Below, piece by piece: positions 6,850 to 55,134 of a stretch of 64,000 nucleotides of DNA; position 1 is the stretch's first letter; the number at the start of each line of letters is the position of its first letter. Source of the DNA: Verrucomicrobiota bacterium (GTDB lineage Bacteria > Verrucomicrobiota > Verrucomicrobiia > Limisphaerales > UBA9464). A model generated the notes under the pieces. That model saw only the letters and a program-made list of their open reading frames with translations, had not been told where the DNA came from and made no database searches. Position numbers and translations under genes: made by a program. Where the stretch lies: the NCBI GenBank assembly GCA_017309115.1, contig JAFLEF010000001.1:184616-248615 (forward strand). Direction: 5' to 3'.

Positions 6850-6954
6850 GTAGCCGCCGAGGCAACGAGGCGCTGACTCCCCCCAGACCACTCCACGCGC
6901 CGAATTCCAAGCGACGCTCAACCTGGAATGGCGCCTCCTCCCGTCGGCGGCTAC
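6850..6954. repeat. family-R2 palindromic intergenic element, copy 1
   Basis: ~105 bp bounded by inverted termini GTAGCCGCCGA...TCGGCGGCTAC, with core aacgaggcgctgact...ccactccacgcgc.gaattcc. Overlaps the stop codon of the MFS gene. Confidence 0.8.
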
Positions 6955-8405
6955 GCAGGCCTGCCCTTTTCCCGCTGACTCAGAGCCGCCATCGCTGCGA
7001 CAACCGCCATGGCCCACAACAGGATCAACGCCTGGGCTACCGCCGGGAACGGATCCGCACCCAACGCCAGCCCGGCCAGACACCACGTCAGAACGGACGA
7101 GGCTGTCGCCACGCCAATGCTGGTTCCCAGGACCCGAAACAAATTCAGTAGGCCACCCGCCATGGCGGAGTCCGCCGGCGGTGCCGCCGCCAACGTCGCA
7201 CTATTGTTGGGCGATATGAACAATCCCAAGCCAACCCCATACAGCGCCAGCGAACCCAACAGCGGCCCGGACCCGAGGTCATCTGCACCCAATACCTCCC
7301 GCAACAACCACACCGCCACGCCACAACAGACCATTCCCGTCAGCGTGGGCCCCCGGGCGCCCCGCCGTTCCGACCAGGATCCACTGAAGGGCGCCGCCAT
7401 GCCCAAGGCTACCGGTAAAATTGCTAGATGCAGGCCCGCCTCCACCGGCGTGAGCCGACCGCCACGCACCAACGCGTACGACATCAGAAAAAACATGCCG
7501 TAGAGCAAGGCGTACGACAGCGTGATGCCGACCAAGCCCGCAGAGAAGTCCCGGATTCTCAACAGCGACAAGCGAATCAACGGGCTTTCGGTGCGGCCTT
7601 CGCGAAGGCCAAATCCGATCAACAAGGTTAGGGCCAGCCCAGCGGTGACGAGGGTCCGCACCGACGTTAGTCCCCAGTCCTGACCGAGACTGAGCACCAG
7701 CAGTAAGGCCACCAAGCCCGGTCCCAGCAGCACGGTGCCGAACCAATCAAAGCGGGTCTTGGCTGGAGCTGGCGGAGACGGCGGCACCAGAACCCACGCA
7801 GCGAGGGCGCCCGCCAATCCGAACGGCACCGTCACCCAAAAGACCGATCGCCAGCCAAATTCGCTCATGAGCCAACCTCCGACCGCTGGCCCAACTCCCA
7901 CGCCCAAGGCTTGCGCGGCCGCGAACCAGCCCATGGCTCTTCCGCGGCGTTCCTTGCCGGCCGCCGCCACCAGCAGGGTCACACTGTTGGCCCCGAGCAG
8001 CGCTCCGCCAATGCCCTGAAGGATGCGACACGCCACCAAACTTCCCAGGGAATCCGCCAGCGCGCACAAGGCCGACGCGGCGGCAAACACGAGGAATCCC
8101 AGAATATAAAAACGCTTCCGTCCGGTGGTCTGAGACAGCCGGGTAAAGGGCGCCAACGCGGCAGCAAACGACAGCAGATACGCGATCGCCACCCAACTGG
8201 CCGCGCCAAGCCCGCACCGAAACTCGGCCTCCAACACCGGCAAGACCAACTGCACGATGCTGGCATCCAGTTGTCCGATGAACGCACCGATGCAGGTGGT
8301 CCCGACGACCATCCAGACGAATCCCGGCCGCTGGACCAGACGGGCCGGCGGCTCTCTTTCCAGAAAGGCTGCGATTCGTTCGCCCATCCGACGTGCACCG
8401 CTCAT
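6951..8405 (-). CDS. MFS transporter, DHA2 (EmrB/QacA-like, 14-TM type)
   Basis: Long hydrophobic protein with IGAFIGQLDASIVQLVLP and LQGIGGALLGANS motifs typical of drug:H+ antiporter MFS. Start trimmed to ATG 8405 (MSGARRMGERIAAF...). The track ORF (to 8747) reads through repeat R2 and overlaps the next gene. Confidence 0.8.
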   Translation of the reverse strand: MSGARRMGERIAAFLEREPPARLVQRPGFVWMVVGTTCIGAFIGQLDASIVQLVLPVLEAEFRCGLGAASWVAIAYLLSFAAALAPFTRLSQTTGRKRFYILGFLVFAAASALCALADSLGSLVACRILQGIGGALLGANSVTLLVAAAGKERRGRAMGWFAAAQALGVGVGPAVGGWLMSEFGWRSVFWVTVPFGLAGALAAWVLVPPSPPAPAKTRFDWFGTVLLGPGLVALLLVLSLGQDWGLTSVRTLVTAGLALTLLIGFGLREGRTESPLIRLSLLRIRDFSAGLVGITLSYALLYGMFFLMSYALVRGGRLTPVEAGLHLAILPVALGMAAPFSGSWSERRGARGPTLTGMVCCGVAVWLLREVLGADDLGSGPLLGSLALYGVGLGLFISPNNSATLAAAPPADSAMAGGLLNLFRVLGTSIGVATASSVLTWCLAGLALGADPFPAVAQALILLWAMAVVAAMAALSQREKGRPA

Positions 8406-8471
8406 CGGCCGTTCGAATATCGAATCTCGTCCTGGGGGAACATCCCGGAATTCGGAAAACGTCGCTCCACC

Positions 8472-8578
8472 GGAGCCGCCAAGGGAACGAGGCGCTGACT
8501 CATCAAGCCAACTCCACGCGCTGAATTCCGAGGAACGCGCCACCATACCCAATGGCGCCTCCTCCCGTCGGCGGCTAC
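8472..8578. repeat. family-R2 palindromic intergenic element, copy 2
   Basis: ggagccgccaagggaacgaggcgctgactcatcaagccaactccacgcgctgaattccgagg...cctcccgtcggcggctac. Near-identical to copy 3. Confidence 0.8.
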
Positions 8579-8640
8579 TCACCCCGGAGGGGCGAGGCTC
8601 ACCGAGCAACCGGTTTCTCCCTGCGTGTGTCCAACTCGCT

Positions 8641-9294
8641 TCAATCTCCGCTCCAGCTGTAATCGTAACCCGGGGGAGGCGAGTAGGACCCCGGGGCCGA
8701 TCGTTCGACACCGTTCCAGTAAATGGCCGTGAGCGCCACGTGGCCATCCACGAAATCTAGAACCGAACGTTCACCAACGCGATTCTCCGAGCGGACCGGA
8801 TGCCACGAACCACCAAAGTACGCCGTCCATTCCCCGACCAACACCGCCCGGTCCGGGTGCGAAATGGTCCCCAGCCGTTTCCCAGTAATCCGCGGGAGAT
8901 CCCCTGGACCGACTTCGTAACCATTGAAGGTGAAGCTGGTGAACGCGTGCTGAACTTGGCGACAAACGGAGCGATCCGCCGGACAAATGAACACCTTCTC
9001 CTGCGGCGACGTGCGGCCGGTCAGACCCAGATAGCCCTTCACGAGTTGCTTGTAATAGGCCCCTACGCCGTTGGGATAAGGATTGGGATCCGGCAACACC
9101 GGAAGCGCGTCCGCGTGATCTTGAGCATACAAGTGAAATGCCAACCCGACCTGCCTCAGCTGGCTCGAACACTGAGTCTTCCACGCCTGCTCACGGGCCC
9201 GTGCCAAGGCGGGAAGCAGCAGAGCCGCCAGGATTCCCACAATCGCCACTACCACCAGCAACTCAATCAGCGTGAATGCGCGCTGAACATTCAT
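8641..9294 (-). CDS. prepilin-type N-terminal cleavage/methylation protein, H-X9-DG family
   Basis: [30 protein letters not shown] and a C-terminal ...LDFVDGHV tail. Its ATG overlaps the stop of the upstream sigma gene (ATGA at 9291-9294). Confidence 0.8.
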
Positions 9295-10553: not shown

Positions 10554-10660
10554 GTAGCCGCCGAGGGAACGAGGCGCTGACTCATCAAGCCAACTCCACG
10601 CGCTGAATTCCAAGGAACGCGCCACCACACCCAATAGCGCCTCCTGCCGTCGGCGGCTAC
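10554..10660. repeat. family-R2 palindromic intergenic element, copy 3
   Basis: gtagccgccgagggaacgaggcgctgactcatcaagccaactccacgcgctgaattccaagg...cctgccgtcggcggctac. Preceded (10531-10553) by a fragment of family A, as in copy 1. Confidence 0.8.
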
Positions 10661-10710: not shown

Positions 10711-11278
10711 ATGGTACGTCCTTCGAATCATGCGCGTCTTGTGAAAGATCAGGTGTACGTGCTGGGACGGGATCAGATCATGCGCCCGTTGGATTTGAAT
10801 CAGGACGGCGAAGCGGACGTGTACGAGAATTTCAACAACGACGACGCGGGATGGAGCACTGCACCGGGTGAGATTCACCGGTAAGCCGTTTCCGACACTG
10901 ACGGGATTCACCGTCCAGCCTCAGAGCTTCGAACTTCAGTTCAACACCGGCATCGATCCAGTCGCCGCCACGGATCCGCAGAACTGGACTTTGCAGCAAT
11001 GGAATTATCGCTGGAGTCACAAGTACGGGTCCGACCTCTATTCGGTGGCAGAGCCGGAGAAGGTTCTGGCCAAAAAGGGCGATCTGAAGGGCGACGCGAT
11101 TATGATCCGCTCCATCCAAGTGCTGGATCAGGGCCGGCGCGTCCGGATCGAGGTTCCCGAGGTCATCCCGGCCATGCAACTCATGGTACGAGGCACCCTC
11201 CGGACGACCGACAAAACCGAACTGCCCGTGGAGTATTACGGATCTATCAACGCAGTGCCGGGCTTGGCAAAACGGTAA
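10711..11278 (+). pseudogene. C-terminal remnant of a larger gene, with internal frameshift
   Basis: Two short overlapping frames. 10711-10884 encodes ...VYVLGRDQIMRPLDLNQDGEADVYENFNNDD... 10868-11278 encodes ...FTVQPQSFELQF...NWTLQQWNYRWSHKYGSDLYSV... They read like consecutive pieces of one protein tail with no N-terminal body upstream. The family assignment is from memory only (PVC dehydrogenase/haem-binding giant proteins). Confidence 0.3.
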
Positions 11279-11301: not shown

Positions 11302-14300
11302 TTGGTTGAACTGAGGAATTTTAAGGATCCAGACTCTGGCATCCACTCGTCTGCTTCGGATCTACGTTCGGCGGCCTCCCGGAACAGCCCCCCCAGTGCC
11401 CGCGACTCCATCTCCGAGATCGCGGTTCGACTGGTGGCCGATCACCCCGGATTGCTGGCTGGCGTCCAGACGCTCAGCGGTCAGTGGCCGGCCTTTTTTC
11501 AGGGCGACCTAGCGGCGGCCCGGCTCCAAGCACACCTACCTCAATGGACGGAAACCATCTGGGCCGCGGTGAATCCAGAGGCGCCGGACCAGGTGCTTGG
11601 ACGAGCCATCGCCGTGCCTCTCCGATTGCACGCGGCGAACCGGTTTCGCCGACCCGACGGCGGCTGGGATACCCTCGTCGGCTGGGCGCTGGAGGATCTG
11701 GCCGCTGGCACCCTGCCAGACACGCTGGTGGGGCTCGATATCACGGTGGAAGACCACGCACCTCACGGAGTGGCCTCAGCGCTGATACTCGCTCTCCGAA
11801 CTCGGGCTTCGGAACTGGGCTGCCGTGAGGTCCTGATTCCGCTGCGACCCGCGGCCCCCGCTTCCCGGCCGGACCTTACCTTCACCGAGTATTTGCGGGC
11901 CACCCAACCCGACCAACGACCGGTGGATCCCTGGTTACGCCTGCATCTGGATCTGGGCGGACGTGTGGAGGGGGTGGCCCGTCGCTCCATGACAGTCGTA
12001 GCGGAATTGGAGCAATGGCGGAAGTGGACCGGAGCAACCCTGCAGTCCAACGGGCCAACCTGGGTTCCCGGCGGAATCGTGCCCGTGCAGGTGAATCAGG
12101 CCTCCGGACTGGGCCGTTACGTCGAACCGAACATTTACATCGTCCATTCCCCGCCGACCAGAAGCCCCTCGCCTGCGGGCTCAACCAAAACCGGGCTGCC
12201 GGACGTCATCGAACTCACCGGACTCGTGGCGGAAGGCCTGCGGAAAACTGCCCGTCTCGCCGGACGACCAGTGTGGCATCCCACGGGAGCACTGGCGATC
12301 AGCTGCCATTCCGGATGGCCCGGGCCGTTTCATCGCGCGGCCGTGGTGCTGGATGACACCCGCAATCCAACCGAGACTTTGGCGAGCCTGGGTCGGCGAC
12401 TCGATCCCGGCGGGCGATGGATTCTGTGGCTTCGTCCGGATCAAGCTGCGCTCCAGAGTGTCGCCGAACGCGGCGGGTTCCGTCCGCTTCCCGCCCAGGG
12501 AACTCCGGACTGGATCCGCCCCCTGGACCGACCCACCAGCGGCCCAGTGGAGCCAATCGAGCCCGACCGCGGCAGTTCTCCCGATCTTCGCTGGGTTCCG
12601 GTGGACCGGGAATCTTGGACCCGCTTTGTGGAGTTGGTGGTTACCGCTTTCCGGGACGAGGCGACGCCAGAAGCCGCCCTGCGCGAACAGTTCGGCCCCG
12701 AACCGCCCGCGCCGGAGGATGGCATCCAGGCGCTTTTCGCCGAGGTAGAGGGACAACCAGCGGCGGCGGCTTGGGTTCGGCTTCACGGGCATTTGGCCGT
12801 GGTGGAGCAGGTCGCTGTGGCCCCCGCGTTTCGCCGCCGTGGATTGGGCCGGCGCATCACCCGGCGCGCACTGGATCTAGCCTCCCAACTAGGAGCCGAA
12901 TGGGCGGTCGTCCAACCGACTACAGCGGGCGAACCCGTCTATCGAGCCTTGGGATTTTTCCCGGCCGGTAGTTGGCAATGGTGGATCAGCCCCAAGTCCG
13001 CCCCGGAGCTTCGCGTCTTGGGGCCCGGCTGGCCACGGGGAGCGCTGCCTGAGGTGAATGGGGTGGATGAATTTGTCCGCCTTCACGCCCACCACCAGCC
13101 CGATCGTCTCGCCCTGGAATCCAGCACTGTCCGCCTGACCTATCGTCAACTGGAGGATCAAATCGAAAGGGTTTCCCACGCACTAGTTCGTGCTGCCATT
13201 GGAGCGGGAGACCGCGTGGCCGTTCTGGATGCAGAAGGAATCGAACCCGTGGTCGCGTTCCTCGGCGTCCTGAGAAGCGGTGCTGCGGCGATCGCCCTGG
13301 ATCCGGATGAACCGGCGCCACGGCGGGCCATCCGGCTGCGAACGGTACGCGCGCTGGTGGCCGGAGTGGAGAATGCGAGAGCCCTGCTGGAAACCCATCC
13401 CCACGTCGGAATGCTGGTGATCGATCCTGCCGACCTAAGGTCTCCGACACTCCCACCTCCCCCCGTTCCCGCCCCCGCCCCGGCCCGAGATCCCGAGGCC
13501 ATCGCCTACGTGGCGTTCACGTCCGGATCCTCGGGGACTCCGAAGGGCGTTGCCATTTCGCATCGCGCGCTACTCGCCCACGCTGCGGGGATGGTGGGCT
13601 GTTTCAAACTCCACGGCGATGATCGGGTCCTGCAACTGACGTCCCTGACTTTCGACGTCGCCTTCGAGGAAATCGTACCGACGCTAGCCGCGGGCGCGAC
13701 GGTCGTGCGGGCACCGCGACGTGCCCGCTTTTCCTTGGCCGATCTGGAGGCGCTGATGTCTGAACTCGGACCGACGGTCATCAATCTCCCTTCGCCGTTG
13801 TTCCATACTTGGGTTGATCAATGCCGCGTTCTGGCCCGCCCGCCCCGGCTCGGTGCACGGATCCGATTGCTGGTGGTGGGGTCGGACCGAACTGAGCCGG
13901 CGGCAATACGGTCCTGGCAGACCATGGTCCGGCCCCCGCACCGAATTGTGCACGCTTACGGCACCACCGAGACGACCATCACCTCGCTCGCGTACGAGAT
14001 TCCCTGGCCGCTTCCGGAGACGGTGAACGACCTCCCGTTGGGTTTTCCTCTGGCCCATGCCCGAGTGGAATTGCGCACGCGGGACGATGACGGAAGGCCG
14101 ACTTCAACCAGCCCGGAACGTCGGGAGTTAGTGGTGAGGGGAACGGCCCTGGCGACTGGGTATCTGCTGACGGAGGCGAACGATGCCTCCCCAAGTTGGG
14201 TGGAGCACACCTTTCGCGAAGGTTGGTATGCCACGGGTGATGCGGTGCGTCTGAACACCGCCGGCGAACTTTGTTTTGCCGGCCGCCTTGATGCCCAAAT

Positions 14301-15621
14301 CAAGATTCGCGGAATCCGGCTCGAGCCCAGCGAGATTGAAGCGGCCCTGCGAGCTCTTCCCGGTATCCGCGACGCCGTGGTCTTACCGATCCCCGTTCGT
14401 CCCGGCTCCGTTGACCTTCATGGCTGGGTGGCTTCGGACGACTTGCTCAACCCCGCTGAACTCCGCGCCTCCCTGGCCCAACGTCTGCCCGAGGCGTTCG
14501 TCCCTACGAGCCTCGCCGTTCTGCGAGAACTGCCCCGGACCGCGGGCGGCAAGATCGACCGAACGGCCCTGCGCACACTCGCCTTCACCTCCTCGGCCAC
14601 GGTTCCTCCTCCGACTCCCAACCGGTCCCCCATCGAACTCCTGGTGGAGGAACTCTGGGCTGAAGTTCTGGGATCCCGCGCCCTGCCCTCCGGCGCGGAC
14701 CTGCTCAAGTCCGGAGCCGATTCGCTTTCCATTTTGGAACTCGCGGTTCGGCTAGAAGCTGCCCTAGGCACTCCGGTGGGCGCCGCCCGGGTCCTTGAAG
14801 CAGGCACGAAAGAGGGACTACAAGCGCTCGCCCAATCCCTGCTCGACTCCACATGGCAACGATCTCCCTTGTTGGCGCTGCATCCTTCCGGAATCCGGCC
14901 TCCCCTGTTTCTGGCAACCACGGACGAACGCACCCTCTTTGGTCTACGACGCCTGTCCGAAGTATTGGGCCAGGAACAACCGCTATATGCCATGCCGTTG
15001 CTGCTGGAAACACAGCCCGACTCCGGCGCCGAACGAGTCTCCACCTACGCCACCCGACTGGTCGACGCGGCCCGCGCCATTCAACCCCGCGGTCCCCTTC
15101 GCCTGGGTGGTGTTTCCCTGGGAACCCTGGTGGCGCTGCAGTCCGCGCACCTCCTGCAGGATCGGGGCGAAGTGGCTCACCTGCTCCTGGTGGACGGAGT
15201 ATGTCATGCCGGTCTTCCCTGGTCGGAGCGCAGCCGATTGATCATGGAAGCGCCGCTGCTGTGGCTTCTGGAACGGGCCCTGGGACCACGCCTTCCGGAG
15301 AATGTGGCGTTGAAATTACGGCAACTCCGCCGCTGGCTCCGCCGCGACACGCTCGAAGACGATCGAGCCAGGCACGAAGTACGCCTGCTGGCCATCGAAC
15401 ACCGGGACCGTCCCACCCCTCTGACTGGAGACGCCAATCTGATCGTCTCAGCGGAAGAGGTCAGGTTGTCTTCGAATAGCTCCCTGGGATGGCGGCGAAT
15501 GGTTCAGGGAAGCCTCACGGTAGACCGGGTGCCCGGCGGCCACTTCGATCTGTTCCAAAGCCAACTCCCGGCCACTGCCGCAGCGATCTCCCGCTGGCTC
15601 CAGCGGCATTCCAGTGAGTAA
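11302..15621 (+). CDS. NRPS-like single-module protein: GNAT-like / GNAT / adenylation / carrier / thioesterase
   Basis: Adenylation cores: AYVAFTSGSSGTPKG (13504-13548), HAYGTTETT, YATGDAV, GRLDAQIKIRGIRLEPSEIE, PRTAGGKIDR. Carrier motif GADSLS (Ser codon 14722-14724). Thioesterase GVSLG (Ser codon 15115-15117) and late GGHFDL. GNAT motif A is VAVAPAFRRRGLGRRI. An N-terminal ~270-aa region resembles a GNAT-like transferase family (WPAFF..., DPWLRLHLDLGG, YVEPNIYIVH). No condensation domain. The start is uncertain: the track ORF begins at 10999 but overlaps the remnant gene, and TTG 11302 is the first start after it. Confidence 0.8.
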   Translation: MVELRNFKDPDSGIHSSASDLRSAASRNSPPSARDSISEIAVRLVADHPGLLAGVQTLSGQWPAFFQGDLAAARLQAHLPQWTETIWAAVNPEAPDQVLGRAIAVPLRLHAANRFRRPDGGWDTLVGWALEDLAAGTLPDTLVGLDITVEDHAPHGVASALILALRTRASELGCREVLIPLRPAAPASRPDLTFTEYLRATQPDQRPVDPWLRLHLDLGGRVEGVARRSMTVVAELEQWRKWTGATLQSNGPTWVPGGIVPVQVNQASGLGRYVEPNIYIVHSPPTRSPSPAGSTKTGLPDVIELTGLVAEGLRKTARLAGRPVWHPTGALAISCHSGWPGPFHRAAVVLDDTRNPTETLASLGRRLDPGGRWILWLRPDQAALQSVAERGGFRPLPAQGTPDWIRPLDRPTSGPVEPIEPDRGSSPDLRWVPVDRESWTRFVELVVTAFRDEATPEAALREQFGPEPPAPEDGIQALFAEVEGQPAAAAWVRLHGHLAVVEQVAVAPAFRRRGLGRRITRRALDLASQLGAEWAVVQPTTAGEPVYRALGFFPAGSWQWWISPKSAPELRVLGPGWPRGALPEVNGVDEFVRLHAHHQPDRLALESSTVRLTYRQLEDQIERVSHALVRAAIGAGDRVAVLDAEGIEPVVAFLGVLRSGAAAIALDPDEPAPRRAIRLRTVRALVAGVENARALLETHPHVGMLVIDPADLRSPTLPPPPVPAPAPARDPEAIAYVAFTSGSSGTPKGVAISHRALLAHAAGMVGCFKLHGDDRVLQLTSLTFDVAFEEIVPTLAAGATVVRAPRRARFSLADLEALMSELGPTVINLPSPLFHTWVDQCRVLARPPRLGARIRLLVVGSDRTEPAAIRSWQTMVRPPHRIVHAYGTTETTITSLAYEIPWPLPETVNDLPLGFPLAHARVELRTRDDDGRPTSTSPERRELVVRGTALATGYLLTEANDASPSWVEHTFREGWYATGDAVRLNTAGELCFAGRLDAQIKIRGIRLEPSEIEAALRALPGIRDAVVLPIPVRPGSVDLHGWVASDDLLNPAELRASLAQRLPEAFVPTSLAVLRELPRTAGGKIDRTALRTLAFTSSATVPPPTPNRSPIELLVEELWAEVLGSRALPSGADLLKSGADSLSILELAVRLEAALGTPVGAARVLEAGTKEGLQALAQSLLDSTWQRSPLLALHPSGIRPPLFLATTDERTLFGLRRLSEVLGQEQPLYAMPLLLETQPDSGAERVSTYATRLVDAARAIQPRGPLRLGGVSLGTLVALQSAHLLQDRGEVAHLLLVDGVCHAGLPWSERSRLIMEAPLLWLLERALGPRLPENVALKLRQLRRWLRRDTLEDDRARHEVRLLAIEHRDRPTPLTGDANLIVSAEEVRLSSNSSLGWRRMVQGSLTVDRVPGGHFDLFQSQLPATAAAISRWLQRHSSE

Positions 15622-16579: not shown

Positions 16580-16762
16580 CGGGGCATCGAAAAGCGCCGG
16601 AGACGGACTGGCAACTGCGAAGCCCGTCGACCGCCCGAGTCTTAACGCCGGCGGCGCGGGAGCAGAGGGCAGTGTCTCGCAGTATCACATCTTCAATCTC
16701 CTGCCCGACGGGGAACGTCCAGATTCGATCACTGAAGGCCCCTTGGGTGACGACACCTCTCC

Positions 16763-36485: not shown

Positions 36486-37223
36486 ATGTCGGACGTCCCC
36501 CAACCCCGCGAATTCACCACCACCCGGTGGAGCGTCGTGCTGCGTGCCGGCGGGGCGAGTCCGGAGGAAGCCCAGTCCGCGCTGGAACAACTCTGCCGCG
36601 ATTACTGGTATCCGCTCTACGCCTACGTTCGCCGCAAGGGCCGTTCCCCCGAAGACGCCGCCGACCTCACGCAAGACTTCTTCGCCAAACTGTTGGCCAA
36701 TGACTTCACCCAGGGTCTGACCCCGGATCGCGGTCGCTTCCGATCCTTTCTGTTGACCGCCCTCAGCCGATTCCTCGTCACCGAATGGCAGAAGGGCCAG
36801 CGGCAGAAGCGGGGCGGCGGAACCTTTACCGATTCCCTCGACGCCCTGATTGCCCAACGCGGCGAGTCCAGTTACCTGGGCGAAGCAGCGCATGGCGAAA
36901 CACCCGAAAAACTCTTTCAGCGCACCTGGGCGGAGACGCTGCTCGCCCGCGTGCTGGAACGTCTCGCCGCCGAGTGCGCGCATCGAGGCGACGTGCGTTT
37001 TGAGGTGCTCCGGCCATTTCTAGCCACCGGGGACGAGCCCCCAGCGTTGTTGGAGGCCGCAGCGCAGCTCAATCTGGCGTTGCCGGCCTTCAAGTCACTC
37101 CTGCACCGATTCCGTCAGCGGTATCGCGAGCTGTTGATGGACGAAGTGAGTCAGACCGTCGGCACGCGCAGCGACATCGCTGAAGAACTGCGCGGCTTGC
37201 TCCAAGCCTTGCGAGCTCACTGA
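36486..37223 (+). CDS. ECF-like sigma factor of the Ser/Thr-kinase-associated type (sigma-1)
   Basis: 245 aa. MSDVPQPREFTTTRWSVVLRAGGASPEEAQSALEQLCRDYWYPLYAYVRRKGRSPEDAADLTQDFF is region-2-like. The C-terminal ...LALPAFKSLLHRFRQRYRELL is region-4-like. Three paralogs of identical length lie in the window, and no anti-sigma gene is adjacent. Confidence 0.85.
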   Translation: MSDVPQPREFTTTRWSVVLRAGGASPEEAQSALEQLCRDYWYPLYAYVRRKGRSPEDAADLTQDFFAKLLANDFTQGLTPDRGRFRSFLLTALSRFLVTEWQKGQRQKRGGGTFTDSLDALIAQRGESSYLGEAAHGETPEKLFQRTWAETLLARVLERLAAECAHRGDVRFEVLRPFLATGDEPPALLEAAAQLNLALPAFKSLLHRFRQRYRELLMDEVSQTVGTRSDIAEELRGLLQALRAH

Positions 37224-37254
37224 GCAAGAAGGACTGGTTGAGAGAAAAATGCCG

Positions 37255-37344
37255 GTAGGGCGACGCTCCGCGGAGCCGTTCATCTGTGGACTCCTGACGC
37301 GTCATTCGCCGGGACCCGAACGGCTCGGCAGAGCCTCGCCCTAC
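37255..37344 (+). repeat. family-A palindromic intergenic element
   Basis: gtagggcgacgctccgcggagccgttcatctgtggactcctgacgcgtcattcgccgggacccgaacggctcggcagagcctcgccctac. Followed by cttaccc/cttaccg heptads and ctctcaac motifs up to ~37450. Confidence 0.85.
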
Positions 37345-37526
37345 CAACTCTCCCCTTTCCGGCCTTACCCGCTTACCCCTTACCCGCTTACCGCTTCGCG
37401 CTTACCGACTTCGTCTCTCAACTCTCAACGTTCATCTCTCAACTTTCCAGCCCCCTACCAGCACCCAGGTATTCCCAAATCCCACCGGTTCGCCACGATC
37501 ATCGGCAAAAGGAATGGAGATTCCCC

Positions 37527-37554
37527 CGAACCCTTCCTCGGCAAACGCGGTGTA
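37527..37554 (+). promoter_or_regulatory. candidate ECF-type promoter, CGAACC-N16-GGTGTA
   Basis: One of seven sites with the same bipartite motif and an exact 16-nt spacer. It ends 11 nt before ATG 37566. Confidence 0.5.
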
Positions 37555-37565
37555 ACTCCAGTGAG

Positions 37566-38249
37566 ATGACTGTTCCGAATCTGAAATCGCGGGCCGTCCA
37601 CCACGGCTTCACTCTGATCGAACTGCTCGTGGTCATCGCCATTATTGCCGTCCTCGCTGGCATGCTCCTGCCCGCCTTGGCTAAAGCGAAACACAAGGCG
37701 CTTGGAGTCCGGTGTCTCTCGAATGAACGGCAACTGGGCCTGGGTTTCGGAATGTATCTGCCCGACAACGCCGACCGGTTGCCCTATTCGCCCGAAGGAT
37801 ATCCCAACATCGCATTTGTGGATTTCTACAAGTTGATGCTTCCCTACCTGCCTACCAACGGCACGTTCTACCGCTGCCCGACCGACAAGGGTCCGATGAA
37901 CGTAATCTTTTCAAAGGCCTTCAATGTACCCACCAATCGGCTGCCGGTGCTGGCCTCCTATTGGTACGTGCCCGGTCTATCACACCTCTCCAAGCCCAGC
38001 AGCTTCACACCCAGACCGTATTCGATGCCAGCTGTCAGTTTTCCTTCGCAGAAGATCTTCTCTACCTGCCTCGCCATCGCGGGCAAGCAGGACATTATCA
38101 ACGGTAAGTTCATTAATCCTCGTGGGCACGGCGCCACCGGCTGGAATTTGTTGTTTGGCGATGGGCACAGCGGATTGGTGCGCGTGCGCGATATCCGGCC
38201 TGACCCGCAGGCTTATCTAGGTGCGCTCGACTGGTCTTCCCCTGGCTGA
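37566..38249 (+). CDS. prepilin-type N-terminal cleavage/methylation protein, H-X9-DG-like
   Basis: [27 protein letters not shown], with C-terminal [16 protein letters not shown]. Sits between sigma-1 and kinase K1. Confidence 0.8.
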
Positions 38250-38330
38250 CGGGACGTCGAGTGAGCACATGATCACCCACTCCTCCTTCCTTACTCCGGG
38301 TTCGTCCGCCTAGGGACCACTGCCTGAACC

Positions 38331-41300
38331 GTGCCCCAGCGAATGAATCTTTGCCCTCGCTGCCAAACCCCACTCGGGCGCGACGTGGGCGGCCTCTGTA
38401 CCGCCTGTCTGTTGGAGGGCGCCTTGCCGGCAGCCGATGGTTTGGCCGAGCCCATCTCCGCGCACGAACTCATCACAGACACCGCCCTGATTCAGCACTT
38501 CGGTCCCTACGAACTGCTCGAGGAGATCGGGCGAGGCGGCATGGGCGTGATCTACAAAGCGCGTCAGCCCGGACTGGACCGCGTCGTCGCGCTCAAGATG
38601 CTGCTGGCGGGTGAATTCGCCGACGCCAAGGCCCGGGAACGGCTCCTGCGCGAGGCCAAGATTGCCGCCCGCCTCAGCCATCCCGGCATCGTCACCATTC
38701 ACGAAGTGGGCGAACACCAGAGCCGACCCTACTTCGCCATGGAGTACGTGCCCGGCCGCAACCTCGCCCAGCATTGCCGCGACGGTCTATTGCCCGTGGC
38801 CACGGCGGTCCGCTATGTCGAACAACTCGCCCGGGCCGTCCACTATGCGCATCAGCACGGCGTCATCCACCGCGACCTCAAACCAGCCAACGTTCTGATC
38901 AGTCCCGACGACGAGCCGAAGCTCACTGACTTCGGTCTGACCAAGTCGCTGGTGGATCCGACCCAGACCGTTGAGTCGGCCGGTTCGCCCAACTTCATGG
39001 CGCCCGAGCAAGCCGACAGCACCTTGGGCACCACCGGTACACCCACCGACATCTACGGCCTCGGGGCAATCCTCTACTACCTCCTCACCGGACGTCCGCC
39101 CGCGGTGGGCGAGACCCTGAGCGAAACCCTGCGCAATGTGGTCGCCGGTGAACCGGTGGCTCCACGGCAACTGCGCCCCGCCCTGCCGCGCGATCTGGAA
39201 ACCATCACCCTCCGGTGTCTGGAGAAGGAACCCGCCCGTCGCTACGCCAGCGCCCAAGACGTCGCCGACGAACTGGCCCGCTGGCAACGCCACGAACCCA
39301 TCCTCGCCCGACCCGCCACCGGCCCCGAGCGCCTCGCCAAATGGGTCCGACGCCGACCCGCCATCGCCGCTCTCACTGCCGCCTGCGCGCTGGCGGTGAT
39401 TCTCGGTTTCGCGGGCGTCACTTGGCAGTGGCGACGGGCCGACGCGGAAGCCACCGCGGCCGCACGGGCCACCGTCGAAAGCCGCGCCTCGGAACTAGCG
39501 GCGCTGCGCAACGCCTATGTGGCCGAGATGACCATCGTCAGCCAGGCGGCTCAGCAGCAACGCTGGCCGGAAGTGCGATATAGCTTAGCGCGAACCAAAC
39601 CCGCTCCCGGGAAGCCCGACCTACGAGGTTGGGAATGGCGTTACCTCTGGCAGGCCAGTCGCCTCGACGCCGATGGCCGGCTGGCTGTGAGTACCAATGT
39701 GATTGGCTCGATGGCGGCCTTGGAGGATGGACGGACGGTGGTGCTGGGGGAAACGGAAGGGGGCTTTTCCTTATGGGATACCTCTTCGGGCCGCGAAACG
39801 TATCGCCTGCCGGAAACCATCAATCGGGTGCGGCATCCTTCTCTGTGGGGTGGCGCTTTGGTCATCTGTCGGGTGGCTACCATCCCGGGCACCGGGATGC
39901 TGGCCTATACCGAGTGTCGCAGCCCTACCAATAGCTTTGTCCACCTCTGGCATGTGGGACGCCGCGAATTAGTCCGCTCGATTCCGGTGTCCGGCATTCC
40001 GCGGTATCTGGCGGCTAGTCCCGACGGTCGTACCGTGGCCTGCAGCCTGATGGCGCCCGAGCGGGGGACGCCGGTGTTTTCCGTGGAGGATGGAACCCCG
40101 GTGGCGAACATCGAGAGCGAACCCTCGGGCTATTCCGCCTGCCATGCCCTGGCGTTCACGGCGGATAGCCAGGCTCTTTGTCTGGAGGATTACGGCACGA
40201 AGAGCGTGCGGGTGGTGAACCTCGCCACCGGACAGGACCGGTACCGCTTTCCCCACGAACAGGACATCCTCCTGACCGTGGCAGTCTCCCCCGACGGGCG
40301 CTGGCTCGTCACCGGGGCCGGCTTTGATAACAAACTTCCTCGGGTGCTGGTGTGGGATCTGCAAACCGGTGAGCGGAAAATGGAACTTCCCGCCAGCAGT
40401 CAGTTCGCGTTGAGCTTTTCCCCAGATGGCCGGCGTCTAGTCACGGGACTAAGCGTCTGGCACGTGCCTGAGTTCACCTTGGAGCGGGAGTTCACCGGTG
40501 CCGAGGCCAACCGGAGGGCAGTGTTATTGCTGGCCGATGGCGACACCCTGTTAGCGGGGTATGGTGGCGACATCCTGCGCTGGCAGCTGAGTTTACCGGC
40601 GCCCCATCGGCGAGGGTTTTCATTGGGCGAAGGCGCCGTGTGCGTCCCCTTTCTGCCGAACGCGGAAGGCGTGTTGATCTCCCGGACCAACGGTCGGGTG
40701 GACCGGGCGGTGGCGCCCGACTTCAAACTGGTCCCCGTGCCTGCCTTGGGCACCGACGCCGTGGCGCTCGCCTGGCTGACCGACCCTGATCAACTCGCCG
40801 TCGCTCGGCGGGAAGGCACCATTACCTTGCATGCGGCGGATACGTTTGCAGAGACGAGTCGCTTCGCCGGCATGACCCAGCCACCGACCGGATTCGCCTA
40901 CTGGATCCCCAAGGCCGGCGTGCTCGTTTTGGGAACGGTGGACGATCGGTTGGAGGCCTGGGATGTGCGGTCGCATCAACGAGTCTGGGAGGCACCCCAT
41001 CTCCCGGGACGGGAATTGAGCGCCCCGACGCCGGAGGGTGTCATCTGGCAGGTTCATGTTGATGGCTGGCTGGTCGGATACGACTTCCTGAACAAGCGGA
41101 TCCTTCGCCAACCGTTGGATCACGACGGCATGCATCGATTGGCCGTCTCTCCCGACGGAAACAGCCTGCTGCTCACTGCGCCTGAGGGGTACAAGCGGCT
41201 GGTGGACATTCGAACCGGACGGACGGTGGACCGCTTTGAGAACCTGAACCTGCCGGCCCCGCACGGTGGGGCCTTCTGGCCGAACGAGGATCGGATTGGT

Positions 41301-41510
41301 TTCTCCGGCCTCCATGTCGTGGACCGCGTTACCGGCCGGAGGCTTTTGACGCTCGAGTCGGATTTGGCCTTCGCCTCCGTGACCTTCATTTCCGACTCAG
41401 GAAGTCTGGTACTGACCGGGGACAGCCAACGCCGCTGTTATCTGTGGCGTGCGCCTTCGTGGGAGGAGATCCGCCGGGTGGAAGCGGCCGAAGCTGCTGC
41501 TGAGTGGTGA
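38331..41510 (+). CDS. membrane Ser/Thr protein kinase with extracytoplasmic WD40-like beta-propeller (K1)
   Basis: N-terminal CPRC...CTAC. Hanks kinase motifs GRGGMGVIYKA, HRDLKPAN, DFG, APE. One TM (PAIAALTAACALAVILGFAGV), then ~690 aa with repeated SPDG/...LWD-type blades. Start is GTG 38331 or ATG 38343. Confidence 0.9.
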   Translation: MPQRMNLCPRCQTPLGRDVGGLCTACLLEGALPAADGLAEPISAHELITDTALIQHFGPYELLEEIGRGGMGVIYKARQPGLDRVVALKMLLAGEFADAKARERLLREAKIAARLSHPGIVTIHEVGEHQSRPYFAMEYVPGRNLAQHCRDGLLPVATAVRYVEQLARAVHYAHQHGVIHRDLKPANVLISPDDEPKLTDFGLTKSLVDPTQTVESAGSPNFMAPEQADSTLGTTGTPTDIYGLGAILYYLLTGRPPAVGETLSETLRNVVAGEPVAPRQLRPALPRDLETITLRCLEKEPARRYASAQDVADELARWQRHEPILARPATGPERLAKWVRRRPAIAALTAACALAVILGFAGVTWQWRRADAEATAAARATVESRASELAALRNAYVAEMTIVSQAAQQQRWPEVRYSLARTKPAPGKPDLRGWEWRYLWQASRLDADGRLAVSTNVIGSMAALEDGRTVVLGETEGGFSLWDTSSGRETYRLPETINRVRHPSLWGGALVICRVATIPGTGMLAYTECRSPTNSFVHLWHVGRRELVRSIPVSGIPRYLAASPDGRTVACSLMAPERGTPVFSVEDGTPVANIESEPSGYSACHALAFTADSQALCLEDYGTKSVRVVNLATGQDRYRFPHEQDILLTVAVSPDGRWLVTGAGFDNKLPRVLVWDLQTGERKMELPASSQFALSFSPDGRRLVTGLSVWHVPEFTLEREFTGAEANRRAVLLLADGDTLLAGYGGDILRWQLSLPAPHRRGFSLGEGAVCVPFLPNAEGVLISRTNGRVDRAVAPDFKLVPVPALGTDAVALAWLTDPDQLAVARREGTITLHAADTFAETSRFAGMTQPPTGFAYWIPKAGVLVLGTVDDRLEAWDVRSHQRVWEAPHLPGRELSAPTPEGVIWQVHVDGWLVGYDFLNKRILRQPLDHDGMHRLAVSPDGNSLLLTAPEGYKRLVDIRTGRTVDRFENLNLPAPHGGAFWPNEDRIGFSGLHVVDRVTGRRLLTLESDLAFASVTFISDSGSLVLTGDSQRRCYLWRAPSWEEIRRVEAAEAAAEW

Positions 41511-41587: not shown

Positions 41588-43807
41588 ATGAATTGGAAAC
41601 GCTCCCAGATTTGTTTTGCCTGGCTCTCTCGCATCCTCGCCCTACTGACCCTCACCGCCGAGTCCCGTCTCGCGGCGCAATCGCCAACTCCGTTCCGGAT
41701 CGACCTCGAATTTGGGGACGAGTGGTCTCAACCGGTCTACGAGAATGACGAGATTCGGGTTCGGATCATCCCGACGGGCGGACAACCGTCCGACCCGGCC
41801 GTTGAACTAAGCTGGTGGATCTCAGTCGATGATGGAGCGGGTGCCCAGCTTCCGTCGCCCACCGAGGGAGTAGAGTTGATCCGGCCCGGCGACCCCGCAC
41901 GGTGGATTACCCTCAAGATACCCGACGACACAGAGGTCCAGTCGGGTTCCGATCGGTATGCCGCAATCAAGATGAGCTCTTCGGCGGGACCCACTACCCT
42001 CGCCAATGAGTGGCTCCCCCTACTGGACAATGAATTTCGCTTCGCGGATGGGGTCTTCGAAACCCTGGGAGAACCCGCCCTCAGGCTCTCCCACACGTAT
42101 TTCGTCGATAGTTGGGGAATGGTCTCACCTAACCTATTTACGCCGACGCCAGACGGAGGCGCCTACGTCGTCTCTCATACCTCAACTGCGACCGAAACAA
42201 TGACATCGGTCCTGCGACACATCCGACCGGATCTGACCCTCGATCCGGATTACCGGGCCGAGACTCCGACCAACTCCTCCATCATTGGAGTTGCTCCCAT
42301 TCCTGGAGGCGGAGTAGTCGTGTTAGTGAATCGCGAGATCGATGGCCAGCAGCGGAGTGAGGTTGTCCGCCTAGACGCCAAGGGTATTGTGAACGCGGCC
42401 TACACGACGAATGCTCGGTCCTCGTTGGGCGACTTCTCGCCGTACCTTGTCCAGGCGACGGACGACGGGGTTGCCTACCTCGGCGGCTCGGGACGAATCG
42501 TCCGGTTGTCGGCGGACGGAACCGTGGATCGCCAGTTTAAGGAAGCCACCTTCAACGGAGATCTGGTGTCACTGGTCCGGCAGGATGAGAAGCTCTATGC
42601 ACTGGGATCTTTCAGCGACGTGGCGGGGCTGGGCACAAATCGGTTCGGAGCGTTCCGGATGCGGGAGTCCACGGGAACTGACCCGAGCTTTTCTGTTATC
42701 CTCAAAACCAACCAGAATGTGATTACTCAATTGGCGGAATTGGGTGACGGAAGGCTAGTCACCCACGGTGCGCCGCTTCTGAACCTGCATGATCACTCCG
42801 GGGTCACTCTTACGAACTTGTTTCAATGGATTTACCGTTACTCCCCACCGGTGCCCTTCCTTGGTGGCGGTAGTACTTCCAGTTCTGACTGGAACGCCCT
42901 TGCCCGCATGGGAGATGGACGGGTGGTAGGCTCAACATTTCACTTTGGTTCGCACGGTGGCGGCTTCGGTTTAACCACAAGATTAGAATCCATCGACTCG
43001 ATGTTGCTCGAACGAGGCCTGCAAGCGGCTGTACCATCAAAAAGCGCCCCACTGCCAATTCTTGGCAGTTCTTTCTGGGTTCCTTCTGCCGTTTACGCTG
43101 CTGGAGAATTCCTCTGGTTTGAAGACTCCTACCAGTCTTTCCAACTCCCCAATCCCATCGGCGAGCGGATGACCTACCGCCGGGTGCGTTGGACCGATGC
43201 TCCAGCAGAGGGCTTCGGAATGAGCCCTTCCCACACAGCCAAGCCCGGCATCCAATCCCACCAACCCATTGCCGTCGTCCGGCGATTCGGCAGTTCCGCT
43301 CGCGCCGCGCAAGTGGAGGCCCGGATCTCGTCCATCGCTTCGGATCCTCCTCAAACACTTCTTTCCTCGACCGTTTCCGTGTCCTTCCAACCAGGCGAAA
43401 CTTTAAAGCCAGTTTTCCTCCCCGAAGGAACACATCTCGCTCCCGGCTCGGTGGCGATCGTTCGGACCACCCTTCTCCCTGGTCCTCAGGCACCGATAGA
43501 GGGCGCCGCCACTGTGGACGCTTTGGTCGTCGGCGTGTCCCCAGACGCCGGCCCCAAGATGGGCATCCACCAGTTCGGCACCGAAATCCTGAGTGGAGAA
43601 CCGATCTTCAGTCTGACGGGCCCACCCGGGGTGCATGGAGTCCGCTATTCCGTGGATGGATTCCGCTGGAGTGGACTCGAAAGCGTGGACCTCACTTCCG
43701 AATCGCCGTTCGTTCTCTTCAAAACTCCATCCTGGGTTCACGACGGAGAATCTGCCCCTGGCCCCGACGCAGAAATGCTCTTGCTCCAAGCCATCCCGAG
43801 TCCATGA
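41588..43807 (+). CDS. secreted repeat protein with delta-60/DUF5122-like beta-propeller repeats
   Basis: Signal peptide MNWKRSQICFAWLSRILALLTLTAESRLAA (start trimmed from 41504, which overlaps K1). Repeats of the type RLDAKGIVNAAY..., RLSADGTVDRQFK...GDLVSLVRQDEKLYALGSF. Confidence 0.7.
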   Translation: MNWKRSQICFAWLSRILALLTLTAESRLAAQSPTPFRIDLEFGDEWSQPVYENDEIRVRIIPTGGQPSDPAVELSWWISVDDGAGAQLPSPTEGVELIRPGDPARWITLKIPDDTEVQSGSDRYAAIKMSSSAGPTTLANEWLPLLDNEFRFADGVFETLGEPALRLSHTYFVDSWGMVSPNLFTPTPDGGAYVVSHTSTATETMTSVLRHIRPDLTLDPDYRAETPTNSSIIGVAPIPGGGVVVLVNREIDGQQRSEVVRLDAKGIVNAAYTTNARSSLGDFSPYLVQATDDGVAYLGGSGRIVRLSADGTVDRQFKEATFNGDLVSLVRQDEKLYALGSFSDVAGLGTNRFGAFRMRESTGTDPSFSVILKTNQNVITQLAELGDGRLVTHGAPLLNLHDHSGVTLTNLFQWIYRYSPPVPFLGGGSTSSSDWNALARMGDGRVVGSTFHFGSHGGGFGLTTRLESIDSMLLERGLQAAVPSKSAPLPILGSSFWVPSAVYAAGEFLWFEDSYQSFQLPNPIGERMTYRRVRWTDAPAEGFGMSPSHTAKPGIQSHQPIAVVRRFGSSARAAQVEARISSIASDPPQTLLSSTVSVSFQPGETLKPVFLPEGTHLAPGSVAIVRTTLLPGPQAPIEGAATVDALVVGVSPDAGPKMGIHQFGTEILSGEPIFSLTGPPGVHGVRYSVDGFRWSGLESVDLTSESPFVLFKTPSWVHDGESAPGPDAEMLLLQAIPSP

Positions 43808-43858
43808 CGGCGTCGGCAGCGATCCCGTAAGTCCCAACCGAGCCCGTGCAACGTCTCG

Positions 43859-43886
43859 CGAATCCTTTTTCCGAAAGTGCAGTAGC
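43859..43886 (+). promoter_or_regulatory. candidate ECF-type promoter, CGAATC-N16-AGTAGC
   Basis: Same architecture as the other sites. Ends 9 nt before ATG 43896. Confidence 0.45.
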
Positions 43887-43895
43887 AAGGGGTGC

Positions 43896-47273: not shown

Positions 47274-47310
47274 GGGGCTGGAGGAAGTTGAGAGACACAT
47301 ACCCGCCCTG

Positions 47311-47515
47311 GTAGAGCGACGCTCTGGAGCGTCTCACCTGATGCGTTACTTCGCCTTTCTATGGAGTGCGGTAGCCCATGCTACCGCTTTTGCATTTTCC
47401 CAGGACGTGGGTGGCGTGGAGACGCATTGGTTGCCGCTGGCCCTCGCCCGTGAGAAAGCGGCAGAAAGTCTAGAAGGTCTGCCGCACTCCACAGTTCCTC
47501 AAATCCTCGCCCGAC
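47311..47515 (+). repeat. degenerate long family-A element with nested family-T element (47360-47493, inverted relative to the 35969 copy)
   Basis: Outer arms gtagagcgacgctctggagcg ... cctcaaatcctcgcccgacc. Inner termini tatggagtgcggtagcccatgctaccgctttt / aaagcggcagaaagtctagaaggtctgccgcactccaca. The central part is the reverse complement of the 35969 copy's centre (attttcccag...cctcgcccgtg). Confidence 0.7.
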
Positions 47516-47536
47516 CAAAAATTCCGCTGATTGCCG

Positions 47537-47564
47537 CGAATCCTTTTCCGGGAACCGCGGTAGA
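47537..47564 (+). promoter_or_regulatory. candidate ECF-type promoter, CGAATC-N16-GGTAGA
   Basis: Same architecture as the other sites. Ends 10 nt before ATG 47575. Confidence 0.5.
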
Positions 47565-47574
47565 GCGAGGGTGA

Positions 47575-51986: not shown

Positions 51987-52023
51987 ACAGGCAGAGTCTC
52001 CGACGGTCGCTCCCCGTCCCCGC

Positions 52024-55000: not shown

Positions 55001-55127
55001 CCCGAGCGTCCCGCTCCCCGTCCGCGCCCAAAAAATCCTCCAACCGGCAACCGGAGCAGACCTCCCCTGGGAGGGTATCCCCCAACGGGGCATCACACCG
55101 AGAGCAACGTTTGGAGGCATCAGTCAT
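52024..55127 (-). pseudogene. Ser/Thr kinase-WD40 paralog (K2) split by a frameshift at a G7/C7 tract
   Basis: Track ORFs 52722-55190 (822 aa: kinase + TM + propeller) and 52024-52734 (236 aa) are colinear with K1. The second ORF aligns with the K1 C-terminus (...SPDG..LLLT..., ...WRAPSWEE / WWAPPWEK). The junction maps to coding-strand ACCCCCCCGAG (52792-52798): frame 1 gives LYRATPPS, and the +1-shifted frame gives PPEFVPVPQPQFGTN, versus K1 APDFKLVPVPALGTD. One extra C would restore a ~1034-aa ORF. Start placed at MTDASKRCSRC (55127). Confidence 0.8.
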
Positions 55128-55134
55128 GATCGCT

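Follow-up and report, generated by a model that had tools for sequence, protein, structure and literature searches.

Can a bacterial assembly line acylate and release an amino acid without any condensation domain? The question is raised by a single gene in a 64-kb stretch of DNA (the window) from a Verrucomicrobiota bacterium of the Limisphaerales (contig JAFLEF010000001.1, positions 184,616 to 248,615 of the forward strand). The gene is a single open frame of 4.3 kb on the + strand that stops at 15621; residues are numbered throughout from TTG 11302. Its product joins two acyltransferase-type domains and a small middle module to the nonribosomal peptide synthetase (NRPS) domains for adenylation (A), thiolation (T) and product release by a thioesterase (TE). 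It is tentatively read here, with somewhat less than an even chance of being right, as a self-contained, NRPS-like synthetase free of a condensation (C) domain, in which the GNAT-type domains would N-acylate a tethered amino acid and the TE would release it. An earlier sequence-only reading had proposed the domain order GNAT-like/GNAT/A/T/TE without a C domain, and the present analysis confirms it. In Pfam searches the 1,439-aa product gives no Condensation (PF00668) match at E<=1, and the gap of only about 30 residues between the canonical GNAT and the A domain could not accommodate even a vestigial C domain.

The A-T-TE part is the most conventional portion of the protein. All motifs quoted for these three domains in the sequence-only reading are found in the sequence. 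Pfam assigns AMP-binding to aa 595-955 (E 6.9e-62) and AMP-binding_C to aa 1011-1084. The NCBIfam model TIGR01733 scores 292 bits (E 4.8e-87), under its 317-bit cut-off, and partial matches extend to MxcG, EntF and DltA. Core motifs of the A domain include A3 (FTSGSSGTPKG, 739-749), A4 (FDVAF, 784-788), A5, A8 (GRLDAQIKIRG, 994-1004) and A10 (GGKIDR, 1082-1087). Because A8, an A9-like LPEAFVP (1062-1068) and A10 are contiguous, the A domain is not interrupted here. The carrier holds its phosphopantetheine site, Ser1141, in GADSLS (1138-1143; 14713-14730). A candidate TE triad, assigned by motif position, comprises Ser1272 (GVSLG 1270-1274, 15109-15123), Asp1298 (LLLVDG 1294-1299, 15181-15198) and His1414 (GGHF 1412-1415, 15535-15546), and the TE has weak matches to the TE domains of EntF and Pks13. 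The closest A-T-TE relatives (30-35% identity, among the best matches listed) are ordinary multi-modular NRPSs with C domains. Two that were inspected are terminal subunits of clusters combining a fatty acyl-AMP ligase (FAAL), a polyketide synthase (PKS) and NRPSs, and are not from siderophore clusters.

The specificity code of the A domain is DVENVGAIT plus K1084, on which a pairwise and a multiple sequence alignment agree. The alignment was anchored on a GrsA-PheA fragment, which reproduces the published code DAWTIAAIC plus K517. A second strain, introduced below, has Val at code position 330, and related NRPS A domains carry DIEDVGTVI or DVENLGAVT. Equivalents of Asp235 and Lys517 are present and argue for an alpha-amino acid as substrate, while Glu239, Asn278 and Thr331 would line a polar, partly acidic pocket. 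The code suggests an alpha-amino acid substrate whose side chain is polar and possibly cationic.

The N-terminal domain matches no Pfam or NCBIfam model. Searched exhaustively with HMMER, a set of 1.84 billion representative proteins yields 2,254 matches at E<=1e-3, of which 560 reach E<=1e-10, and every match is confined to the first 240 query residues. Free-standing proteins of about 250 aa, named 'GNAT family N-acetyltransferase' by NCBI, make up the majority. An alignment of 61 members (A1) defines the family signature PVRPxxK ... MxEY ... DGLPxDPWLRxHxRxGG ... W..W ... YVEPNVW, and its eight invariant columns (G, P-x-R-P, D, G, W, Y) are all present in the protein studied here. An AlphaFold2 (AF2) model built on A1 adopts a GNAT fold (mean predicted local distance difference test, pLDDT, 88; predicted template modelling score, pTM, 0.82). 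Its best PDB matches in Foldseek are the SxtA methyltransferase-decarboxylase didomain (7UCI, E 5e-8), the GNAT-like decarboxylase of GphF (6MFC, 6e-7) and the loading domain CurA GNAT_L (2REE, 8e-7), the top matches reaching a template modelling (TM) score of 0.69 on the target. Ordinary small-molecule N-acetyltransferases (insect arylalkylamine, polyamine and agmatine N-acetyltransferases) are the next neighbours. The A1 profile searched against the PDB gives the same three proteins: CurA GNAT_L (2REE) at E 3.7e-10, SxtA (7UCL) at 1.2e-4 and GphF at 0.89. The GNAT-like N-terminal region of the sequence-only reading is thus borne out by more than 2,000 relatives and a confident fold, and its remark that assembly-line GNATs can serve as loading or decarboxylating modules fits the homology to CurA and SxtA.

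Residue correspondences place the domain more precisely. In the profile alignment the family W-L-R-x-H falls on CurA L-L-R-F-H (chain indices 139, 171 and 173, to which 216 is added, are Thr355, Arg387 and His389). His389 and Thr355 form the catalytic dyad of CurA, and Arg387 contacts the 3'-phosphate of coenzyme A (CoA) (PMC3701320). Arg213 and His215 are the equivalents of Arg387 and His389, and each is kept in 97-98% of the family. Besides these two residues, the domain shares with the GNAT_L domains of CurA (2REE/2REF), SxtA and GphF the block MxEY...DGLxVDPxLRxHxxxG and membership of a carrier-protein assembly line, but it is about 50 aa longer and has a distinct C-terminal YxEPNxW motif. 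CurA-type PKS loading modules consist of an adaptor region, GNAT_L and an acyl carrier protein (ACP), whereas the protein studied here lacks the adaptor region and a directly following ACP; its partner is an NRPS A-T-TE unit, not a PKS module, and Pfam finds no ketosynthase (KS) or acyltransferase (AT) domain. By its alignment, the domain is a divergent member of its own family.

The same family also occurs inside NRPS A domains. Among the best 150 relatives of the N-terminal domain, 12 are NRPS megasynthases that carry it within an A domain, between A8 and A9. They come from Cystobacter fuscus, Paenibacillus hunanensis, Burkholderia sp. L27 and metagenomic NRPSs (Myxococcota, Bacillota, Pseudomonadota). 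Seven of these interrupted A domains have the code DALQIGHVD or a version of it with one or two positions changed. In the Burkholderia sp. L27 protein (P0245), motifs A8 and A9 lie at 435 and 769 with the insert between them at 522-742, and the carrier serine motif follows at 842. This protein is an A(insert)-T unit with no C domain, directly followed by a TE gene and then a phosphopantetheinyl transferase (PPTase) gene; its insert lacks the family Lys and His. The A8-A9 site is the one at which methyltransferases are embedded in A domains (PMC10510592), and its use by this family suggests action on the T-tethered aminoacyl group. Known interrupted A domains hold methyltransferase, ketoreductase, oxidase or epimerase inserts; the relatives described here are likewise inserted, at A8-A9, whereas the domain of the studied protein is N-terminal. 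The searchable open literature yielded no account of an A domain with a GNAT-type insert.

Neighbourhoods of other family members vary. The interrupted A domain of P. hunanensis belongs to an NRPS/PKS cluster that also contains a methyltransferase and a gene for a beta-lactamase-ABC fusion. In Catenulispora pinistramenti (L001, 2994-10711), a free-standing member adjoins a set of the NRPS-independent siderophore (NIS) type (an Acetyltransf_8 fusion protein, IucA/IucC-FhuF and a PhyH dioxygenase). Another free-standing member has an amine oxidase neighbour (L003) and a further one has unrelated genes (L007), so that no consistent function emerges from these neighbourhoods.

The second acyltransferase-type domain is a canonical GNAT, as the sequence-only reading had it. 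Three Pfam GNAT models score above their cut-offs: Acetyltransf_1 (aa 472-552, E 6.7e-12, 46.1 bits against a cut-off of 20.7), Acetyltransf_7 (34.8 bits, cut-off 27) and Acetyltransf_10 (25.2 bits, cut-off 23.6). An RxxGxG-type motif A and a Tyr are established features of CoA-dependent N-acyltransferases (PMC3701320). The domain has both and is complete; with its acyl-CoA-binding motif intact, it is predicted to be an acyl-CoA-dependent N-acyltransferase. Weak NCBIfam matches, all far below cut-off, are to small-molecule N-acetyltransferases that include resistance types (STAT, ArsN2). A search with aa 289-590 finds as relatives only three two-domain GNATs of about 270 aa, of which the C-terminal GNAT alone aligns (aa 435-561; hhalign probability 98%). 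A 514-aa protein from the Logan assemblies (P0214) also fuses a GNAT_L-like domain (aa 39-275) to a downstream canonical GNAT (Acetyltransf_1, aa 336-430). Its GNAT and that of the window protein are not homologous, which indicates that pairing of the two domain types has arisen at least twice.

Between the two acyltransferase-type domains lies the middle module, which has no Pfam (E<=10, 12301-12720), NCBIfam or PDB sequence match. It is a real module, as only 2 of 149 residues differ between the two strains. An AF2 model from the single sequence has low confidence (pLDDT 39); the beta-beta-alpha-beta-alpha order that it shows would be compatible with a degenerate GNAT half. A degenerate second GNAT is not adopted here: the idea comes from that model and from the analogy with two-domain GNATs only, and hhalign aligned the canonical GNAT alone. 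The sequence-only reading had taken LGRRLDPGGRWILWL (~12384-12428) for the tail of an S-adenosylmethionine (SAM) methyltransferase. That proposal does not stand; the region gives no methyltransferase match in the same Pfam search, and the segment lies inside the conserved module of about 105 aa.

Such an unusual fusion could be several genes read as one, or an assembly chimera. Neither is the case, because the same uninterrupted open reading frame, of 1,440 aa and 98% amino-acid identity, is present in an independent second assembly built from another run (Logan SRR10663364, locus L005), where it is called from the equivalent TTG. The two versions differ by 35 substitutions and one in-frame extra codon, and over 5.8 kb the DNA of the loci is 96.7% identical. 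Codons 38-1439 hold 56.5 synonymous and 26.5 non-synonymous differences, a ratio of non-synonymous to synonymous rates (dN/dS) of 0.175, and none of the domain segments exceeds 0.35 (table). The open reading frame is one real, intact gene under purifying selection in all domain segments, and the division into several genes that the sequence-only reading had allowed for did not materialize.

Deletions surround the gene in this lineage. L005 carries an intact 779-aa DUF6797 gene (176-2515) that ends 24 nt before the enzyme gene, whereas the window has a remnant without two internal stretches (L005 189-1349 and 1455-2071). Downstream, about 2.5 kb of L005 (7912-10397), with three small genes (91, 416 and 194 aa), is missing at window 16669-16759 except for a 97-nt piece. 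The enzyme gene has been retained while neighbouring genes were deleted.

The start codon was called uncertain in the sequence-only reading, and several starts are indeed usable. Formally the frame is open from ATG 10999, and its first 100 codons overlap the end of the DUF6797 remnant (stop 11278) and resemble an out-of-frame translation. Past 11278, the only in-frame starts are TTG 11302, GTG 11434 and TTG 11452. The NCBI model of the identical protein (MBN9688746.1, 1,395 aa, annotated 'MAG: GNAT family N-acetyltransferase [Verrucomicrobia bacterium]', where MAG denotes a metagenome-assembled genome) begins at GTG 11434. In the alignment with the N-terminal-domain family, homologous residues (EIAVRL) begin upstream of that GTG, which favours TTG 11302 as the start, with a loosely constrained tail; GTG 11434 is still a candidate. 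TTG 11302 and the purine-rich stretch preceding it are conserved in the related strain. Codons 1-37 differ from that strain at 9 of 37 residues and 14 of 111 nt (dN/dS 0.59), a divergence several-fold above the synonymous divergence of the remaining gene (dS 0.05). They are either a hypervariable tail or a 5' leader.

The fusion itself has a narrow distribution. The distribution searches list best matches only, so that a distant second example is possible. In the exhaustive HMMER search, nothing but the protein itself matched beyond the first 240 query residues, among the matches listed. Within the best 120 full-length matches, GNAT Pfam domains combine with A, T and TE only in this protein. 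A scan of 185,579 species genomes gives no second fusion and one distant stand-alone homologue (Catenulispora). The JGI metagenome scan gives nothing for the middle/GNAT/A junction, and in a tblastn search none of 72,556 plasmids has a place spanning both parts of the GNAT-A junction. Among the matches listed, the full fusion is known only from this organism and the 98%-identical variant, and it appears confined to this lineage. These searches are consistent with the sequence-only statement that the architecture is not a described one.

A working mechanism can be outlined from the predicted domain functions. (i) The A domain would activate an alpha-amino acid and load it onto the T domain. (ii) The GNAT-type domains would fill the role of a starter condensation domain: the canonical GNAT, perhaps together with the GNAT_L-like domain, would use acyl-CoA to acylate the free amino group or groups of the tethered amino acid. 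With a diamino acid, both amines might be acylated. (iii) The TE would free the product by hydrolysis, or by cyclization or oligomerization. (iv) The product would be an N-acyl, possibly a di-N-acyl, amino-acid derivative. The N-acylation proposal draws mainly on the fused C-terminal TE, which implies TE-mediated release, on the CoA-type features of both GNAT-type domains, and on the presence of the N-terminal-domain family at the classical insertion site for tailoring domains in other A domains. The pairing of two acyltransferase-type domains with an A-domain code that implies an acidic or polar pocket, and the dN/dS of 0.11-0.35 across the segments, also speak for it. The Burkholderia sp. 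L27 set of A(insert)-T, TE and PPTase genes, likewise free of a C domain, has the same components as the first and last parts of the protein studied here and lends further support.

Several points weigh against this proposal. We know of no characterized protein with this domain order. GNATs normally acetylate free amino acids without tethering, and simple hydrolytic release leaves the ATP spent on the thioester unexplained. Since simple N-acetylation needs no thioester, the TE may do more than hydrolyse (forming a lactam, an ester or an oligomer), or a role like that of Ebony, considered below, may apply. In the N-terminal domain, Pro186 replaces a Lys found in 89% of the family, Gln205 a Gly found in 97% and Tyr279 a Trp found in 97%. 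The equivalent of CurA Thr355 is Leu181 (in P-L-R-P), and the position is Val or Leu throughout the family. With these four equivalents missing, the domain may be catalytically altered or a mere binding module. Codes of the D-x-E-[DN]-x-G type go with Orn, Lys or Arg (for example, Orn DMENLGLINK). Nothing was found for the codes DVENVGAITK, DALQIGHVDK and DMENLGLINK in the searchable literature, so that an Orn- or Lys-like substrate is a tentative lead. Lastly, as the sequence-only reading had noticed, the gene survey of the 64-kb window finds no flanking biosynthetic genes: no PPTase, exporter operon or pathway gene adjoins the enzyme gene.

The GNAT fold might instead take the T-bound aminoacyl group as donor, as in Ebony, SbzI and FeeM, and pass it to an external amine or hydroxyl; we consider this unlikely. 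The acceptor would be soluble or envelope-bound, the reaction would amount to a tRNA-independent aminoacylation, and the TE would serve for editing or unloading only. Such a role would account for the thioester activation of the amino acid. It would also suit the N-terminal domain, which falls in a clade whose members of solved structure have carrier-bound acyl groups as substrates, with insect arylalkylamine, polyamine and agmatine N-acetyltransferases next to it. Precedent is established: SbzI, GdvG/AprG, FeeM and the GNAT-like decarboxylases depend on carrier proteins (PMC11685415), and Ebony has a C-terminal domain of the arylalkylamine N-acetyltransferase (AANAT) fold after A-T (PMC10510592). 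However, a fused TE with a candidate triad and a dN/dS of 0.11 would be redundant if a GNAT released the product, and Ebony has none. The canonical GNAT keeps its Arg-rich, CoA-type motif A, and the N-terminal family keeps the Arg that in CurA contacts the CoA 3'-phosphate, a group absent from the carrier-bound arm; nor is there an acceptor-supplying gene nearby. It is rather improbable that the GNAT-fold domains are bond-forming replacements for a C domain in a bacterial counterpart of Ebony, with the N-terminal domain representing a new class of in-cis NRPS domain, related to the PKS GNAT_L decarboxylases and found also as the A8-A9 insert, that acts on the carrier-tethered aminoacyl group. 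A true CurA-like decarboxylase in N-terminal position, acting on malonyl-CoA or on a carboxylated T-bound substrate, would supply acetyl groups locally or convert the substrate before release. In its favour are the homology to the CurA, SxtA and GphF domains, seen both in sequence and in fold, and the His389 and Arg387 equivalents conserved in the family and in this protein. The Thr355 position speaks against it, because the CurA T355V mutant has almost no decarboxylase activity (PMC3701320); the domain is for this reason classed as a relative of the GNAT_L decarboxylases and not as a member with their activity. Moreover, the Asp235 retained in the A domain suggests an amino-acid substrate and not one of the malonate type, and an amino acid with a cationic side chain has no activated carboxylate. 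Decarboxylation is therefore judged quite unlikely.

The acetyltransferase domains might also stand outside product assembly altogether. GNAT acetylation of the A10 lysine in AMP-forming enzymes is an established form of regulation, and the A10 motif here (PRTAGGK) fits the PX4GK target pattern, so that Pat-like acetylation of the enzyme's own K1084 can be envisaged. Self-resistance or detoxification of the released product is a related idea, with which the far-below-cut-off matches to STAT and ArsN2 would agree. Both are given very little probability: no precedent is known to us for a regulator fused to its own target, the occurrence of the GNAT_L-like family inside A domains and beside TE and PPTase genes would be left unexplained, and two acyltransferase-type domains with a conserved middle module exceed what regulation needs. 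That the gene is a decaying or non-functional relic, the remains of a terminal NRPS module deprived of its C domain and partners and fused fortuitously to GNAT genes, seems hardly credible. It is true that the gene is an orphan with no adjoining pathway genes, that its neighbours are being deleted in the lineage, that the N-terminal domain has lost three family-conserved residues, and that the closest A-T-TE relatives, among the best matches listed, are terminal modules of large PKS-NRPS clusters. Yet the frame is intact in two strains 3.3% apart in nucleotides, with the single indel in-frame; dN/dS is low overall and in every segment of codons 38-1439; all catalytic motifs of the A, T, TE and canonical GNAT domains are intact; and the gene survives while its flanks are deleted.

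How N-acylation by fused GNAT-type domains would relate to known systems can now be considered. C-free A-T-TE enzymes of the NRPS-like kind are known, among them the mycosporine-like amino-acid ligase Ava_3855/MysE and the fungal and bacterial aryl-acid A-T-TE synthetases. The protein studied here resembles them in having one A, one carrier and one TE in one polypeptide without a C domain, and it would count as 'NRPS-like' by antiSMASH-type rules; it differs in the roughly 590 residues of acyltransferase-type domains that precede the A domain. To our knowledge, no C-free A-T-TE enzyme with N-terminal GNAT-type domains is known. The fusion with a GNAT_L-like domain, a middle module and a canonical GNAT is new. 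With Ebony, SbzI, GdvG/AprG and FeeM it would share the principle that a GNAT fold coupled to a carrier thioester replaces the C domain for amide formation (PMC10510592, PMC11685415). Ebony carries its GNAT-fold domain at the C-terminal end and has no TE, whereas the protein studied here has its GNAT-type domains ahead of the A domain and a TE after T; SbzI and FeeM, for their part, are free-standing. No sequence relationship to Ebony, SbzI, GdvG/AprG or FeeM was detected in this analysis.

Another comparison is with lipoinitiation, as carried out by starter condensation (Cs) domains, and with the vicibactin pathway. In the latter, the single-module NRPS VbsS works with the acyltransferases VbsA and VbsC, and two separate acyl transfers take place on ornithine. 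The proposed likeness is amino-group acylation of one activated amino acid followed by TE release. The protein studied here, however, lacks a Cs domain, its acyltransferases are fused and not separate, and the window contains no siderophore genes: among open reading frames of at least 200 aa in the 64 kb, there is no amino-acid N-hydroxylase, TonB receptor or other siderophore gene. The vicibactin-like idea is without positive support beyond this logic, because the closest A-T-TE relatives sit in FAAL-PKS-NRPS clusters. Trimerization of VbsS has been mentioned (PMC8776678).

If the N-acylation proposal is true, the gene would encode a minimal single-gene assembly line with GNAT-type domains doing the job of a starter condensation domain, and would provide a compact template for engineered N-acyl amino-acid synthesis. 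A large unnamed family of 250-aa 'GNAT' proteins is now linked to the CurA-type PKS loading and decarboxylase domains. That the same family is built into NRPS A domains, at the usual methyltransferase site, is possibly a more useful lead than the fusion. Verrucomicrobia are little explored for natural products, and an orphan NRPS-like gene under selection in an uncultured member, known from a MAG, is a concrete target for heterologous expression.

Table 1. Features of the enzyme gene and its surroundings in the window, with dN/dS by segment (window against L005) and related proteins and loci.
Feature	Position	Residues	Strand	Evidence or remark	dN/dS
Whole gene	11302..15621		+	1,439 codons plus stop, counted from TTG 11302	
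N-terminal tail or possible 5' leader	11302..11412	codons 1-37	+	low-complexity, poorly conserved	
GNAT-like domain (CurA GNAT_L/SxtA/GphF kind)	11413..12156	aa 38-285	+	HMMER, AF2, Foldseek, profile against PDB	0.16
Motif PLRP	11839-11850		+	N-terminal domain	
Motif DPWLRLH	11926-11946		+	N-terminal domain	
Motif YVEPNIY	12118-12138		+	N-terminal domain	
Pro/Ser-rich linker, ~105-aa alpha/beta module (core ~12199-12516), second Pro-rich linker	12157..12585	aa 286-428	+	2/149 residues differ from L005	0.11 (middle module)
Canonical GNAT acetyltransferase domain	12586..12996	aa 429-565	+	Pfam, PDB GNAT matches, hhalign	0.35
Motif A RRRGLG, within RRRGLGRR	12832-12855		+	canonical GNAT	
Tyr in YRALGF	12940-12957		+	canonical GNAT	
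Adenylation domain	13084..14562	aa 595-1087	+	Pfam, NCBIfam; LgrA is the best PDB match	0.19
Thiolation (carrier) domain	14644..14808		+	PP-binding aa 1115-1169, E 5.8e-07, 30 bits (cut-off 20.8)	no amino-acid replacement
Thioesterase domain	14899..15618		+	Pfam Thioesterase aa 1233-1432, E 1.2e-15	0.11
DUF6797 gene remnant (not part of enzyme)	10730..11278		+	stops in translation	
Upstream neighbours			opposite	redoxin protein, phosphodiesterase, major facilitator superfamily (MFS) transporter (6951-8747), DUF1559/N-methyl protein, sigma-70-like protein	
Downstream neighbours				cytochrome-c-like protein, two proteins without assigned function, BlaR1-type peptidase	
Interrupted A-domain proteins				P0139, P0154, P0167, P0182, P0195, P0202, P0222, P0231, P0240, P0245, P0262, P0268	
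Related loci				L002 (10001-12679), L004 (10001-13450), L006 (10001-17374)	

Other elements of the window are recorded here in their own right. A repeat of about 110 nt occurs on the - strand at 6851-6955, 8474-8578 and 10555-10660, and also in L005 at 1-107, the copies being 81-98% identical. It has an 11-nt terminal inverted repeat, GTAGCCGCCGA ... TCGGCGGCTAC, and folds into a long hairpin (-56 kcal/mol, z -2.8). The window copies lie at the 5' ends of three consecutive minus-strand genes, for the phosphodiesterase, the MFS transporter and the sigma-like protein. The repeat has no Rfam match; it could be an element resembling miniature inverted-repeat transposable elements (MITEs) or repetitive extragenic palindromes (REPs), or a shared leader. 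Further downstream, three paralogous pairs of an extracytoplasmic function (ECF)-type sigma factor and a Ser/Thr kinase-WD40 protein are encoded at 36486-41510, 51249-55190 and 56601-61410. Two adjacent giant proteins at 43635-50898 combine a reprolysin-like metallopeptidase with Calx-beta and DUF5122 beta-propeller repeats.

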